From a phage: a stretch of DNA of 64,000 bases. The position numbers were made by a program, and so were the translations under genes. Location of the stretch: the sequence record PZ386980.1, one strand, 5' to 3'. Shown one piece after another: positions 2,230 through 30,818 of the stretch; position 1 is the stretch's first letter; each line of letters starts with the position of its first letter. The notes beneath the pieces were generated by a model. That model did no database searches. It was not told the DNA's origin and saw only the letters and a list, made by a program, of their open reading frames with translations.

Positions 2230-2550
2230 TCACAATGAAGAAAATTCTTTAACTAAAGCCTGTAATGAAGCCTCTATTGGATATCCATTCTTAACTAACA
2301 TTTTCCTAAACATTACATGTTTAGGACGATTATATGATATCCACAATTCATACAATTTATCTTTATTATCCCAATGATAGCCTTTTCGTCGAGATGCTAT
2401 ATGAGCTTTTCTAATCTCCGGATTTTTCCAACTAGCAGCTACTGAATTTGATATAGCTATTTTATATTCAGGTTTTGATAAAGCAGCACGAACAGCCTTT
2501 TGGTGTTTAATTTTATTTTCTTCGTTATTAAACCATTCCCTTGAAGCCAT
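2230..2550 (-). CDS. HNH homing endonuclease, C-terminal DNA-binding portion (second ORF overlapping the catalytic ORF; possible frameshift or decayed gene)
   Basis: 106-aa ORF overlapping 2457..2550 of the upstream HNH ORF in another frame; basic, NUMOD-like repeats (KIKHQKAVRAALSKPEYKIAISNSVAASWKNPEIRKAH). Confidence 0.45.
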   Translation of the reverse strand: MASREWFNNEENKIKHQKAVRAALSKPEYKIAISNSVAASWKNPEIRKAHIASRRKGYHWDNKDKLYELWISYNRPKHVMFRKMLVKNGYPIEASLQALVKEFSSL

Positions 2551-3083
2551 TGAAATTTTTGTTTTGTTTTAAAATTATTTAATCTTTCTTTATTATCTTT
2601 CCTATTTTTTGCTACTGAAAAATATTTTAATGCCCTTTCTCTAGCAGCATTTCTATTTTGCGGATTTGAATAATACTGTTGAAGCCTTTTTGATATTGTG
2701 TCACTTACATCTTGTTTTATAAAACTATATTCAGCAGCTATTAAATCAACTTCGGCTAAAGATAAATTTTTATATGTTTTTCCTGACATCATTCTATTTA
2801 AAGCATTTAGCATTTTTCCATTTTTACCTTTTGCTAATAAGAAGTGTGCTTTAAAATGATTAAAATGACTTAAATTAACTAAATTCCATGTAGATTTTAA
2901 ATATTCAGGAAATATTGATTTAGGAAGCACGTGGTGTGCTTCCGTTTTACCTGGAGTTTTAACAGTTGAATTCACAGAAATAAAATTAATGTAAGACTTG
3001 GCGTCTTCTTCACTCAACGCTAATTTTTCAACTAATTCCTTTATTAAAAATTCATCATTAATGTCAAGTTTAAAATTCTTCAC
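2457..3083 (-). CDS. Freestanding HNH homing endonuclease (mob-like), N-terminal catalytic portion
   Basis: 208 aa; motif EAHHVLPKS...NLVNLSHFNHFKAH fits HNH (HH...N...N...H); GTG start overlapping TGA stop of the upstream ORF; basic C-terminal half. Confidence 0.6.
   Translation of the reverse strand: MKNFKLDINDEFLIKELVEKLALSEEDAKSYINFISVNSTVKTPGKTEAHHVLPKSIFPEYLKSTWNLVNLSHFNHFKAHFLLAKGKNGKMLNALNRMMSGKTYKNLSLAEVDLIAAEYSFIKQDVSDTISKRLQQYYSNPQNRNAARERALKYFSVAKNRKDNKERLNNFKTKQKFQWLQGNGLITKKIKLNTKRLFVLLYQNLNIK
3048..3067. repeat. Direct repeat copy A (aaattcatcattaatgtcaa) at the 5' end of the HNH ORF
   Basis: 20-nt perfect match to 3251..3270, similarity extends about 16 nt further; gives both ORFs a shared DINDEF N-terminal peptide. 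Confidence 0.8.
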
Positions 3084-3343
3084 AAAAGATTCCTTTTAAT
3101 GTATCTTTTAGACCATTCTATCATATCATCATAATCTAAAAAGTATTCATCAAATTCAGCCATGCAAACAACGCCTTGTGCTGTTTTTGATGTAATATAA
3201 ATTATTCCAACATATCTAGAATCTTCTTCGGTATAATCAATATTTGCTATAAATTCATCATTAATGTCAAATGTCGAAAACTTCACAGTATGCATCCTTA
3301 ATACAAGATACAGCCATATCTCGTAATGATTTAGGTGTGTCAT
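3080..3343 (-). CDS. Hypothetical protein (start uncertain; internal ATG at 3295)
   Basis: ORF track; contains FSTFDINDEF peptide duplicated at the start of the HNH ORF; overlaps neighbours. Confidence 0.4.
   Translation of the reverse strand: MTHLNHYEIWLYLVLRMHTVKFSTFDINDEFIANIDYTEEDSRYVGIIYITSKTAQGVVCMAEFDEYFLDYDDMIEWSKRYIKRNLL
3251..3270. repeat. Direct repeat copy B (aaattcatcattaatgtcaa)
   Basis: Perfect 20-nt match to 3048..3067 on the same strand. Confidence 0.8.
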
Positions 3344-26995: not shown

Positions 26996-27577
26996 CTAAC
27001 CGAGCTTTTTAGTTAATTCATTCCAATGTTTTCTACACAAAGAAACATAAATTTCATCACCAATACAGATTTGATTACCTTCTTTAACTGGTGTTCCATC
27101 TTCCATTAATCGAGCTGTCATAATCGCTTTTTTGCCGCAATGACAAACTGCCTTTAGTTCAATAAGTTTATCTGCAATCGCTAAAAGTTCTTTAGAACCT
27201 TCAAACAATTTTCCAGCGAAATCAGTCCTTAATCCATAAGCCATAACAGGAACATTATATGTATCAACAATTCGGCTCAATTGATGCACTTGTTCAGTTT
27301 TTAAAAACTGAGCTTCATCTACAAATACACAATGAATATCTTTTTGTGCTTCAGCCCATTTATAGAACTCGAAAATATCCATATCATCTGTAATAATATT
27401 CGCTTCCTGTTTAATTCCAATGCGAGAAACAACTTCACAGACAGAATCGCGAGTATCAATAGCAGGCTTAAGAACTAATACACTCATTCCACGTTCTTTA
27501 TAATTATGTGCAGCAGTCAAAAGAGAAGCAGATTTTCCAGCATTCATTGCTGCATAAGTAAAAATTAAACTCGCCAT
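26996..27577 (-). CDS. tk: Thymidine kinase
   Basis: 193 aa; P-loop AAMNAGKS, C-terminal Cys cluster CHCGKKA...C; matches recalled T4 Tk. Confidence 0.93.
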   Translation of the reverse strand: MASLIFTYAAMNAGKSASLLTAAHNYKERGMSVLVLKPAIDTRDSVCEVVSRIGIKQEANIITDDMDIFEFYKWAEAQKDIHCVFVDEAQFLKTEQVHQLSRIVDTYNVPVMAYGLRTDFAGKLFEGSKELLAIADKLIELKAVCHCGKKAIMTARLMEDGTPVKEGNQICIGDEIYVSLCRKHWNELTKKLG

Positions 27578-27586
27578 ATCACCTTC

Positions 27587-27772
27587 TTAAAGCGTATTCA
27601 CATAAGCTATTAATTCATTTTCTTTCTTATCAAACCGATCAGCAAATTCTTCCTGCTGTTCAGGAGATAGCGGGCCGTATTCATCATAAAAGGTGTTTGC
27701 TTCTGTATGCTCATCTAGAAGTTCATGGATAAGCTCAAACAATTTATCTTTTTGTTCTTTACTCAGACTCAT
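27587..27772 (-). CDS. Hypothetical small acidic protein
   Basis: ORF track. Confidence 0.5.
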   Translation of the reverse strand: MSLSKEQKDKLFELIHELLDEHTEANTFYDEYGPLSPEQQEEFADRFDKKENELIAYVNTL

Positions 27773-27942
27773 ATATTAATTTCCAGGAGTTTTAAAATAA
27801 TTCGCTTTTGCTTAAATATTTCCATAGTTAAATGACTAGTATCTTTTTGACCGATTCCAATGGCAAAACCTTTATTAACAGCGAGTTCAATTAAATTATC
27901 AAGCTCACGTAACACTTCGTATTGTAACTCAAAACTATTCAT
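27769..27942 (-). CDS. Hypothetical small protein (57 aa, below track cutoff)
   Basis: Hand-translated MNSFELQYEVLRELDNLIELAVNKGF...; ATGA overlaps at both ends. Confidence 0.45.
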   Translation of the reverse strand: MNSFELQYEVLRELDNLIELAVNKGFAIGIGQKDTSHLTMEIFKQKRIILKLLEINI

Positions 27943-28166
27943 TTTGGTTTACCTTCTTTAACGAAATCAGGATAAGGATAAAATCCTGAATAAAATCCTT
28001 CACCTTTATGATTGATGCATCCTTTATTAGAACAATAGCACCAATAATCGAAATCACAAGCCATTTCATCATTACATAAAGCAAAAACAACCGGCCACTT
28101 ACACTTTTCACAATGGGCATTTTTAAGAATACTAGTTTGGCTCATAACCATGTCACCTTCAAGCAA
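27939..28166 (-). CDS. Cys-rich small protein (probable zinc binding)
   Basis: 75 aa; HCEKCKW...C...C..C.CSNKGC. Confidence 0.5.
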   Translation of the reverse strand: MLEGDMVMSQTSILKNAHCEKCKWPVVFALCNDEMACDFDYWCYCSNKGCINHKGEGFYSGFYPYPDFVKEGKPK

Positions 28167-28369
28167 TATTCTTCTACATGCTGTTTACGACCTTTCTTAT
28201 CAATAAAGGTATATTCAACGAATGTTCCAATGTAGTCTTTATCTACATCATGTGGACTATTAATTGGGCATTTAGTACGACAAATGCGTTCCCATTGACG
28301 AATAATTACTGCTTTGTTTTTAGGATCAAATGGATGTGGGTAATGTACTTTCATAATAATGGTTCCCAA
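28142..28369 (-). CDS. Hypothetical small protein
   Basis: ORF track. Confidence 0.45.
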   Translation of the reverse strand: MGTIIMKVHYPHPFDPKNKAVIIRQWERICRTKCPINSPHDVDKDYIGTFVEYTFIDKKGRKQHVEEYCLKVTWL

Positions 28370-28818
28370 TCAACAATCACAATTTCTAATTTAGAGGAAT
28401 ATGTATCTAAAATCCCCTCAATAATATCCCAGTTCCCTTTACCTATGCCTGCACCAATCCTAGGCATATAGATTGTAGGTTTAATCAGTTTATTTTCACC
28501 AAACTCATTTAATTCTAACATACAATTCATTAAAGCGGAATACTCAAAATTTGGCCCTGGTTGAAATTGAGTATAAAGATTAAAGCAGTAAGCTTTATGA
28601 GTCCTAAAGTATTTTTCATAAACTGAATAAGAACCAAGTTTAGTTACATCACCCCATTCAGTCTGTAATTTATCAGCTTCCAAAATTTTAGGAAAAGCTT
28701 TAGTTAATTGACCTGCGACTCCAGCTTTCATCGTATGAAAACAATTGCATCCATGCGCAATATTTTTACCTTCAGCGAAAAGGGCGACAATATCGCCCTT
28801 GATATATTTTACAATCAT
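28351..28818 (-). CDS. Macro-domain-like protein (putative ADP-ribose binding/hydrolysing)
   Basis: 155 aa; IKGDIVALFAEGKNIAHGCNCFHTMKAGVAGQL resembles the GDIT...NAAN...GGGVdgAI pattern of macro domains; by eye only. Confidence 0.45.
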   Translation of the reverse strand: MIVKYIKGDIVALFAEGKNIAHGCNCFHTMKAGVAGQLTKAFPKILEADKLQTEWGDVTKLGSYSVYEKYFRTHKAYCFNLYTQFQPGPNFEYSALMNCMLELNEFGENKLIKPTIYMPRIGAGIGKGNWDIIEGILDTYSSKLEIVIVDWEPLL

Positions 28819-29156
28819 CTAGTACTCAATCCTCGATTATAAGAATCTACCAAACGGTCAACCATTGAATGACAAGCGGCTTTATCTTTCTCCTCCGCAA
28901 CTGAACATTCTAAAGTATTCCACTTTTTAGCATATCGTTTTAATAATGTATCGTTTTTGTATCTGCTTGATTTATCTCTTTCTCCGTCTTTGTATGCATA
29001 TATTAATTTCTGTGCAAATTCAGCTTGGCATGCTTTATTTTTCCCACAATAATCTGCCGCAGTGCGGTTTACATACTCTCTAATTTCAGTATATGATGTA
29101 TCTGCTAACGCAGAAAATGAAATTAATCCTATACATAAAACCAAAATTTTAGTCAT
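28815..29156 (-). CDS. Secreted Cys-containing small protein
   Basis: 113 aa; signal peptide MTKILVLCIGLISFSALA. Confidence 0.5.
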   Translation of the reverse strand: MTKILVLCIGLISFSALADTSYTEIREYVNRTAADYCGKNKACQAEFAQKLIYAYKDGERDKSSRYKNDTLLKRYAKKWNTLECSVAEEKDKAACHSMVDRLVDSYNRGLSTR

Positions 29157-29694
29157 TTACTATTTCCAAAAGTTTATTATTTTTAAGGTAATTAGCCTTT
29201 TCTAGGACTTCAGAAGCATATTTAGAACCTGCTTTAACATTCCATCCCGAATTATAAGAGGATATTGCTTTTCTTATATCGCCCTTATGTATATTTAACC
29301 AATAAGAAAGTTCAATGTACGCCCAGGAAGCTGAATTGGACCGTTTATTCAACATTCTTTTTATTTCAGCATCGGTCATATTATAACCAAGTTCCTTAAC
29401 TCTTGCTCGCATAGTAGGCAAATAATTTTGGAACATTCCATAAGCGTGATGCTTTGGTTTAGATTTTAAATTAACTCCGCCAGAGCTTTCTTGCCATAAA
29501 ATAGCAGCCATTATATGACCTAATCCACTCTTGTGGATGTTTTTGTGTGTTTTATATTTTCCATCCTTAGAAAATTGTTCCCCGAATTGATACGCGTAAC
29601 GCATGTTATCGAGTTGGACATTACTGAAAGTATGCTCGGAGCTATGTGCCATCATTGAAATGGCCAATAGACCAGCGAGTAGTGCTTTTCTCAT
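29149..29694 (-). CDS. Secreted lytic-transglycosylase-like protein
   Basis: 181 aa; signal peptide MRKALLAGLLAISMMAHS; SLT-type motifs WQESSGG and AYGMFQ. Confidence 0.6.
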   Translation of the reverse strand: MRKALLAGLLAISMMAHSSEHTFSNVQLDNMRYAYQFGEQFSKDGKYKTHKNIHKSGLGHIMAAILWQESSGGVNLKSKPKHHAYGMFQNYLPTMRARVKELGYNMTDAEIKRMLNKRSNSASWAYIELSYWLNIHKGDIRKAISSYNSGWNVKAGSKYASEVLEKANYLKNNKLLEIVND

Positions 29695-29701
29695 GCTTAC
29701 C

Positions 29702-30163
29702 TCATTGAGTTTTAATTACTGCTTTAGAAGCCTTTCCTGGTAAACGACGACTGTTAATAATTGCCATCCTACATTGGAGTGACGGGTCTTTGAACTTCTC
29801 ATTAGGTTTACAAACCGTAAATCCAAGCCAAAGATTTCCATCTGTGATTTCTAAACGTCCAGGACGATATTCAACCCCATCAATAAAATCCTCGTCAATG
29901 TCAGGACGCGGAGGCATACTCAGAAATTCATTAACTTCTAAAACATGGTCTTTTATTTTATGGAATAATTCAAAAACGTATGTCTCATCAATCTCCCGTT
30001 GAATTGCGCGATCAAGAAGATGCTGAGAATATTTTAGATGAAACGATGAGACCCCTGCTGCTTTTGATGCCTCACGAATCTCATTGTTAATTTGACGAAA
30101 CTCCGACTCAAAGTGACGACGAAGCTTATTTCGACGGATAAAAACTTCTGTATTGATAGTCAT
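29702..30163 (-). CDS. regB: Endoribonuclease RegB
   Basis: 153 aa; same length and position (after tk block, before denV) as T4 RegB; early promoter directly upstream. Confidence 0.8.
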   Translation of the reverse strand: MTINTEVFIRRNKLRRHFESEFRQINNEIREASKAAGVSSFHLKYSQHLLDRAIQREIDETYVFELFHKIKDHVLEVNEFLSMPPRPDIDEDFIDGVEYRPGRLEITDGNLWLGFTVCKPNEKFKDPSLQCRMAIINSRRLPGKASKAVIKTQ

Positions 30164-30188
30164 GTTATTCTCCTCTTAACTGATAGAA

Positions 30189-30236
30189 AAATTATACCAC
30201 AGTCAAGAGGAAAAGTAAACAGTTATTCTTTAAATC
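30189..30236 (-). promoter_or_regulatory. T4-type early promoter
   Basis: -35 GTTTAC, 18 nt spacer, -10 TATAAT; ~28 nt upstream of regB ATG. Confidence 0.55.
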
Positions 30237-30543
30237 TAATCAATTTATTCATAGACTTTGAAACTTCTGCACGAACCTCATGTAAGTTTTTAAGCTGTTC
30301 AAGACGCTGCGTATAGTAAGCAATTTCATCTTCTTCGAGACAGTCCTGTGAATCTTCTTTAAGATAACGCGCATAGTCCTGGAAAGCTTTACGGACTACT
30401 TCCTGGAAGTCATCAAGACTTTGAATTTTCTTAGGAGCGGCAGATACACGACGAGGTGCAGTATAATACTCATAACCAAACCCTGCGCTTAATTGAGCCA
30501 TTAGTATTTTTCCTCTGGTTGGAACACTGCGCGACAAGCCCAC
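30223..30543 (-). CDS. Hypothetical protein
   Basis: ORF track; probable start at internal Met. Confidence 0.45.
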
Positions 30544-30818
30544 ATACTAGCTTCTTTGAGTTTAGACTTGGCCTTTTGAATGCAGTCAATAGAATTCATA
30601 GCTTCATCTAACTTAGAGTCTGACACTTCTTCATTTCCACCTAATGTGCTGTAGATTTCAATATACTCGTCTTCTAAAGCCTTTAAAATAAGTCCTAAAC
30701 GAACTTCAGCGTCTTTGATAGCATTCACTTTACCGATTTTCTCTTCAGTATGCGGCTTATAACCTTTAATGTCTTCAATCATATTTGACTTCCTCACCAG
30801 TACATAAATCATATTCAA
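30501..30818 (-). CDS. Hypothetical small protein; speculative Acb2 (vs.4)-like cyclic-nucleotide sponge
   Basis: 94 aa from internal Met; position after regB as for T4 vs.4; no motif-level support. Confidence 0.3.

Follow-up and report, generated by a model that had tools for sequence, protein, structure and literature searches.

What does the small macrodomain gene between the thymidine kinase gene and regB do for a T-even phage, and with which kind of active site would its product work? The question is raised by a stretch of phage DNA of 64,000 nucleotides (sequence record PZ386980.1; the whole stretch is referred to as the window), which carries an open reading frame of 155 codons with an ATG start and a TGA stop on the minus strand (28351..28818). 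Based on the list of open reading frames, the annotation of phage RB51, the Pfam Macro profile, its identity to T4, and an AlphaFold2 model, it was identified as tk.4, encoding a stand-alone macrodomain of 155 amino acids, the orthologue of T4 Tk.4/AdfM. A preliminary description, made by eye from the letters, had seen a macro domain in this frame and had put forward three roles for it, namely the reversal of DNA ADP-ribosylation of the DarT type, the degradation of ADP-ribose-derived signals, and the regulation of the phage's own ADP-ribosyltransferases. After our analysis the first of these is favoured. With a probability of roughly 75%, Tk.4 (adfM) counters DarTG2 of the host by a glutamine-type hydrolysis of thymidine-linked ADP-ribose on single-stranded phage DNA.

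Identity of tk.4 and its T4 orthologue

The open reading frame is real, and the N-terminus encoded by 28351..28818 is the sequence that had been quoted for it. A region of 1.4 kb around tk.4 revealed 100% identity to the Tequatrovirus phages RB51 and RB68, with 97–99% identity to many further T-even phages. The counterpart in RB51 is RB51ORF119 (gene tk.4), annotated as "phosphatase; Tk.4; contains A1pp phosphatase motif", and in other records the gene is labelled "macro domain protein". We rejected "phosphatase" as an experimentally established function, since this label was carried over from the name of the A1pp domain and does not stem from an assay. Compared with T4, 14 codons of tk.4 differ, and because 12 of these differ synonymously, tk.4 is considered a real gene under purifying selection. 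At the protein level, 153 of 155 residues (98.7%) are identical to T4 Tk.4 across the full length, and the gene order vs, tk.4, tk.3 is common to the RB51-type window and T4. Based on this near-identity and the conserved gene order, tk.4 of the window is the orthologue of T4 tk.4.

For the T4 gene, genetic data have been published. Transposon mapping of T4 on a DarTG2-expressing host revealed tk.4 as the single significant depleted hit, a clean knockout of tk.4 rendered T4 sensitive to DarTG2, and the gene was renamed adfM, for anti-DarT factor Macrodomain (bioRxiv 10.1101/2025.11.20.689424). Because of the orthology to T4 tk.4, the leading hypothesis of the preliminary description is supported, as reversal of DarT-type DNA ADP-ribosylation fits the knockout genetics of the 98.7%-identical orthologue; for its two other proposals, degradation of ADP-ribose signals (Thoeris or other) and regulation of the phage's own ADP-ribosyltransferases, our findings offered no support. 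The novelty implied there did not hold either, given that the match between tk.4 orthologues and A1pp (macro) had been in print since 2006 (PMC1524935) and is contained in the GenBank annotation. Thus, tk.4 was already known from its annotation, from the domain match of 2006, and from the anti-DarTG2 role in T4 reported in 2025. What is added here is the glutamine-type active site, which separates the T-even lineage from DarG and from AdfM of phage phiKZ, and a K31/A32 allele of the substrate loop.

Macrodomain fold and class

The macro domain that had been assigned by eye was confirmed by a Pfam profile as well as by the predicted fold. Pfam Macro (PF01661) matched with 25 bits (E 1.9e-5), the gathering threshold being 22, aligning residues 22–132 of Tk.4 with profile positions 2–113 of 118. 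A single-sequence search of PDB sequences resulted in hits to BT1257 (E 2e-8), Poa1p, OARD1/TARG1, SCO6735 (5E3B), and DarG. When a profile of the Tk.4 family, built from 45 sequences, was searched against PDB sequences, BT1257 was found with E 8e-19, TARG1 with 6e-15, SCO6735 with 1.5e-14, Poa1p with 2.5e-14, and DarG with 2e-13 to 2e-11, while macrodomains of coronaviruses and alphaviruses reached merely about 5e-3.

An AlphaFold2 model calculated from the family alignment (mean predicted local distance difference test, pLDDT, of 96.2; predicted template modelling score of 0.91) displayed the three-layer alpha/beta/alpha macro fold. The leading Foldseek matches in PDB were TARG1 (E 6e-10), Poa1p (2e-9), BT1257, and DarG; structure prediction, which had been suggested beforehand as a check, thus yielded a confident macro fold, and the top matches were all macrodomains. 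The nearest neighbours in structure and in sequence belong to the ALC1-like class, clearly before MacroD, viral, PARG, and other macrodomains. Altogether, Tk.4 is a member of the macrodomain class termed ALC1-like (TARG1/DarG/SCO6735/Poa1p), and its conserved loops suggest that it binds ADP-ribose.

A glutamine in place of the catalytic lysine

The active site was compared by means of HMMER, MAFFT, and hhalign, the latter with the family profile against SCO6735 and DarG from T. aquaticus. Sequences of DarG, TARG1, BT1257, and SCO6735 were taken from the HMMER alignments, that of DarG via phiKZ gp104 and the PDB search. A MAFFT alignment of seven sequences misplaced BT1257 near the glutamine discussed below, which was resolved by HMMER and hhalign. 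Conservation was counted among 120 cluster representatives of the Tk.4 family with identities of 35–99%, and all fractions of homologues given here refer to this set.

The decisive motif is N-L-Y-T-Q at codons 80–84 (28567..28581, minus strand), in which Q84 stands in the place of the catalytic lysine according to HMMER, MAFFT, and hhalign. Its counterparts are K80 of DarG (N-F-P-T-K80), K84 of TARG1 (Y-L-I-T-K84), K78 of phiKZ AdfM (M-F-P-T-K78), and the essential Gln85 of SCO6735 (N-M-I-G-Q85), and it is invariant in the family (120/120). The motif H-G-C-N-C at codons 22–26 (28741..28755, minus strand) contains H22 and N25, corresponding to H24 and N27 of SCO6735, with N25 also aligned with N22 of DarG (hhalign); N25 and C26 are each conserved in 119 of the 120 homologues and H22 in 115. 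A third motif, the phosphate-binding loop P-R-I-G-A-G-I-G-K-G-N-W, is encoded by codons 119–130 (28429..28464, minus strand) and was likewise located by the alignments. Its P119, I121, G122, and G124 are each present in 120/120 homologues and W130 in 117/120, and G122 and G124 align with G126 and G128 of SCO6735. At the place of the catalytic D125 of TARG1, Tk.4 carries G126, and this residue is alanine or glycine in all 120 sequences.

These positions have been studied in characterized relatives. DarG needs Lys80 and Asn22, TARG1 needs Lys84 and Asp125 (PMC9411070), and phiKZ gp104 carries N23 and K78 (PMC13309987). [quoted passage not shown] Because the catalytic lysine is replaced by the invariant Q84, which would be held by the near-invariant N25, catalysis in Tk.4 is most likely of the SCO6735 type rather than of the lysine-dependent DarG/TARG1 type. 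The best reading, by analogy, is that Tk.4 represents a short-loop, glutamine-type ALC1-like macrodomain with SCO6735-type hydrolysis of thymidine-linked ADP-ribose. A site of this type predicts Q84A and N25A to be catalytically dead mutants. The missing catalytic lysine is mentioned in neither of the two published AdfM papers (the T4 preprint and the phiKZ paper).

Tk.4 resembles Poa1p, which is described as an Appr-1''-p phosphatase, and homologues in other phages occasionally adjoin genes for nicotinamide phosphoribosyltransferase, ribose-phosphate pyrophosphokinase (PRPP synthetase), Rnl1, or PNKP, so that Tk.4 might act primarily on small molecules derived from ADP-ribose (e.g., ADP-ribose-1''-phosphate, O-acetyl-ADP-ribose, or a defence signal) and be a metabolic or signal-clearing "phosphatase", in line with the older annotation. 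However, Poa1p has a serine where Tk.4 has its invariant glutamine, and the only known phenotype of the T4 gene is DarTG2-specific. We consider a small-molecule substrate quite improbable.

Proposed action against DarTG2

For the favoured hydrolysis of thymidine-linked ADP-ribose, the following course of events is proposed. Tk.4/AdfM would be produced early in infection, and DarT2 of the host DarTG2 would attach ADP-ribose to thymidines in single-stranded phage DNA. Tk.4 would then hydrolyse the thymidine-linked ADP-ribose, whereby phage replication would be restored; the invariant Q84, held by N25, would position the substrate, and water would do the reaction. T4 tk.4 was classified as early for its RNA and middle for its protein (PMC9697503 supplement), a timing which fits a factor acting during phage DNA replication. 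By analogy to SCO6735, we infer that Tk.4 itself hydrolyses thymidine-linked ADP-ribose.

Several points weigh against this reading. Even for T4, enzymatic removal of ADP-ribose from DNA was only said to be what "seems likely" (bioRxiv 10.1101/2025.11.20.689424). The family profile scores the solved relatives within a narrow range (BT1257 71 bits, TARG1 59, SCO6735 57, Poa1p 57, and DarG of M. tuberculosis 54), and therefore the placement in the subclass rests mainly on motifs. In BT1257 and SCO6735, a mobile loop directly after the glutamine is 5–6 residues longer, and this extension is absent from Tk.4. Furthermore, the DNA-contacting Lys34 and Lys89 of SCO6735 have no equivalents in Tk.4: K34 falls on A32 (S32 in T4), and K89 belongs to the part of the loop missing from Tk.4. 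RB51 Tk.4 does carry K31, a lysine right beside residue 32, as well as K127. The allele of the window is, moreover, unlike the tested T4 one, as its G31K exchange replaces a widely kept glycine, the first of the GxG loop described below. Finally, catalytically dead SCO6735 still inhibits DarT (PMC9411070), so that binding may contribute besides hydrolysis.

This last point leads to the alternative that Tk.4 is chiefly an antitoxin mimic, which would neutralise DarT2 through binding and inhibition instead of hydrolysis on modified DNA. Not only SCO6735 (Q85A) but also dead DarG (K80A) and TARG1 (K84A) inhibit DarT in vitro, SCO6735 being the strongest (PMC9411070), and the anti-DarT factors AdfA and AdfB were described as small non-enzymatic proteins (PMC11825919). 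The phenotype of the T4 knockout is compatible with binding as it is with hydrolysis. On the other hand, the residues needed for SCO6735-type catalysis (the asparagine, the glutamine, and two loop glycines) are kept in 119–120 of the 120 homologues, and this near-total conservation argues for selection on enzymatic activity; in addition, Tk.4 with its 155 amino acids has no counterpart of the C-terminal DarT-binding domain of DarG. Inhibition of the toxin as the principal mode of action appears unlikely to us.

Several ADP-ribosyltransferases are encoded by T-even phages, so that Tk.4 might also reverse the ADP-ribosylation of proteins or RNA, thereby tuning phage Alt, ModA, and ModB or countering other defences based on ADP-ribosyltransferases. 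However, the targets of T4 Alt, ModA, and ModB are arginines, and no cleavage of arginine-linked ADP-ribose by ALC1-like macrodomains is known. While SCO6735 and TARG1 also de-modify proteins (auto-modified PARP1 E988Q; PMC9411070), the T4 screen reported no phenotype of tk.4 besides DarTG2 sensitivity. Proteins or RNA as the relevant target are thus very unlikely, and hydrolysis on phage DNA remains the preferred reading.

The substrate loop and the RB51 allele

The sole amino acid differences between RB51 and T4 Tk.4 are G31K and S32A. According to protein and DNA alignments with T4, both are located in the "GxG" substrate loop M-K-A-G-V-A at codons 30–35 (28714..28731, minus strand), which lines the ADP-ribose cleft and reads K31-A32-G33 in RB51 and G31-S32-G33 in T4. 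Among the homologues, G33 and A35 are invariant, and residue 31 is a glycine in 103/120 and a lysine in 5/120. The first glycine of the loop is kept in TARG1, DarG, SCO6735, BT1257, and phiKZ gp104.

At the nucleotide level, differences from T4 are dense over seven consecutive codons (28714–28734, codons 29–35 of tk.4), including both residue changes, and the gene is identical to T4 from codon 80 through the stop. Codons 29–35 resemble a small patch of mosaic or gene-conversion origin within the substrate loop.

With G31K and S32A as the only residue differences from T4, both inside this patch of seven densely changed codons, and with the first glycine retained throughout the characterised relatives and in 103 of the 120 homologues, the RB51/RB68 allele could be weakened or re-specialised and hence unlike T4 AdfM. 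In contrast, open reading frames with K31 are intact in many phages, as the cluster of the K31 allele (representative P0001) comprises 122 members and an identity of at least 99% was found for 37 phage records. Furthermore, every residue of the catalytic site is intact, and the pLDDT of the model amounts to 94–95 through the GxG loop. A weakened or re-specialised allele is therefore regarded as improbable, and the RB51 allele is presumed to be as active as that of T4. K31/A32 represents a natural variant of the loop that could serve for probing specificity.

Genomic context and transcription signals

As had been stated before, the open reading frame lies in the interval between tk and regB, being flanked by the thymidine kinase gene (26996..27577; Pfam TK, E 6e-61) and regB (29702..30163; Pfam REGB_T4, E 8e-69). 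Within this interval, tk.4 is tightly packed, with ATGA overlaps at both ends. The stop codon of vs, the gene for the valyl-tRNA synthetase modifier (28815..29156, minus strand), overlaps the start codon of tk.4, and the start codon of tk.3 (DUF7202; 28142..28354, minus strand) overlaps its stop codon. The gene vs.1 (29149–29694, minus strand), a "hypothetical protein" in RB51, revealed a match to the SLT lytic transglycosylase domain (25.1 bits, cutoff 21.3), which had been noted already in 2006 (PMC1524935), and its N-terminus MRKALLAGLLAISMMAHS resembles a signal peptide.

The set of small genes between tk and tk.4 (27587–28354, minus strand) is unlike that of T4. While T4 harbours tk.1, tk.2, and tk.3 in this interval, RB51 possesses tk.2 (DUF7438), RB32ORF110c (no family), RB32ORF111c (a Cys-rich Phage_zn_bind protein, PF23895), and tk.3 (DUF7202). 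In this interval, beside an anti-defence gene, small accessory genes without known function form a hot spot. In the T4 "wild" record KJ477684.1, no coding sequence is annotated at the expected place of tk (Tk.1 to rI.1; 2545–3169 of the excerpt), and both tk.3 and tk.2 carry the label "Tk.2"; like the missing tk, this is an inconsistency of annotation and not biology.

Promoters and terminators were scanned from 27500 to 30700, and the counts did not exceed a shuffled expectation. With 12 sigma-70-like sites found and 13.0 expected, their number was not above chance. The best match (TTTACT-17-TATAAT with an upstream TG; 30191..30219, minus strand), which is based on the consensus only, is located just upstream of regB and might serve the run regB-vs.1-vs-tk.4 as an early promoter; between regB and tk.4, the scan revealed no terminator-like sites on the minus strand. 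A dedicated promoter of tk.4 is not claimed, since the one plausible sigma-70-like site is that upstream of regB and the counts were at chance.

Codons 7–13 of tk.4 (28780–28800) contain a perfect inverted repeat, AAGGGCGA...TCGCCCTT, corresponding to a 9-bp hairpin in the mRNA, which also scores as terminator-like on the opposite strand. Its folding energy was not significant (z = -1.27), and the hairpin is probably incidental.

Distribution

Using tblastn, homologues of Tk.4 were detected in 2,813 of 50,697 phage records (about 5.5%), the main phages bearing them infecting Escherichia, Klebsiella, Salmonella, Pseudomonas, Vibrio, and Acinetobacter. Given this share, the mechanism bears on how broadly phages evade defences that act by DNA ADP-ribosylation.

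One homologue (P0070) originates from a metagenome-assembled genome assigned to Bacilli (contig JBOFGC010000414.1, 1-8397). It was examined for a cellular toxin-antitoxin context, but its bacterial label was rejected, as the contig is a fragment of a T4-like phage, with neighbouring genes for DUF4326, a T4-type RNA ligase 1 (Rnl1), a Dda/PIF1-like helicase, PNKP, dCMP deaminase, and a T4 spanin. There, RNA-repair genes surround the macrodomain gene, which is not beside vs, and the sequence, lying on a phage contig, is therefore uninformative on a cellular origin.

In Acinetobacter phage KissB and in Vibrio phages Achelous and Quinn, the macrodomain gene adjoins genes for nicotinamide phosphoribosyltransferase or ribose-phosphate pyrophosphokinase, which suggests a link of the Tk.4-like macrodomain to NAD+ salvage and ADP-ribose metabolism in some lineages.

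Comparison with known systems

The closest known system is Tk.4/AdfM of T4, which has the same neighbours, vs and tk.3, and the same overlapping start and stop codons as tk.4 of the window. The DarTG2 phenotype is a result obtained with T4, while the allele of the window differs by G31K/S32A.

With respect to the active site, SCO6735 of S. coelicolor (PDB 5E3B) and BT1257 of Bacteroides (PDB 2FG1/2AFC) form the glutamine-type subclass of ALC1-like macrodomains, and Tk.4 is placed there mainly by its motifs, with Q84 on Q85 and N25 on N27 of SCO6735. The motifs H-x-C-N and P-R-I-G-x-G-x-(A/G)-G are common to all three proteins, though Tk.4 shares only about 21–29% identity with the other two. 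Furthermore, the Tk.4 family is overwhelmingly phage-encoded, in contrast to the cellular proteins SCO6735 and BT1257.

In comparison, the macrodomain of DarG (T. aquaticus, 5M31/5M3E; M. tuberculosis, 5M3I) has its catalytic K80 (T. aquaticus) where Tk.4 has Q84. The NCBIfam model of DarG (NF048014) matched Tk.4 with 25.1 bits at a cutoff of 250 and only over model positions 2–146 of 338, and from the PADLOC model of DarG the macro part alone was matched (29.7 bits, E 1e-7, positions 2–145 of 329). Among the neighbours of tk.4 (vs, vs.1, regB, tk.3, and the gene for the small zinc-binding protein), no gene for DarT or another ADP-ribosyltransferase was found, and a tblastn search of plasmids for DarG neighbours resulted in only 28 weak macro or SLOG-fused matches and no annotated DarG. 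Tk.4 was thus rejected as a DarG, as it possesses neither the catalytic lysine nor the C-terminal domain, has no darT neighbour, and scores below the cutoff.

TARG1 likewise reverses the thymidine modification by DarT (PMC8501950; PMC9411070) and differs from Tk.4 in its K84/D125 dyad, which is Q84/G126 in the phage protein.

The counterpart in name is gp104 of phage phiKZ, the AdfM of chimalliviruses, which has the same role of a phage macrodomain countering DarTG2 and for which removal of thymidine-linked ADP-ribose was demonstrated in vitro (PMC13309987). It differs from Tk.4 in being a DarG-like, lysine-type macrodomain (K78, motif F-P-T-K; E 9e-25 to DarG of M. tuberculosis), and by BLASTP the two phage proteins are barely detectable as similar (E 0.018 over 23 residues). 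Judged by sequence, two different macrodomain lineages share the name AdfM. Tentatively, and with somewhat less than an even chance, we propose that T-even AdfM is a glutamine-type, SCO6735-like thymidine-ADP-ribose hydrolase separate in mechanism and evolution from DarG and from chimallivirus AdfM, and that K31/A32, set in the strongly diverged patch of seven codons, reflects diversification in an arms race. If this is true, macrodomains of two different lineages would have been enlisted by phages against DarT2, and the diversification at K31/A32 might concern, e.g., a changed DNA-sequence preference or the interaction with DarT2 variants.

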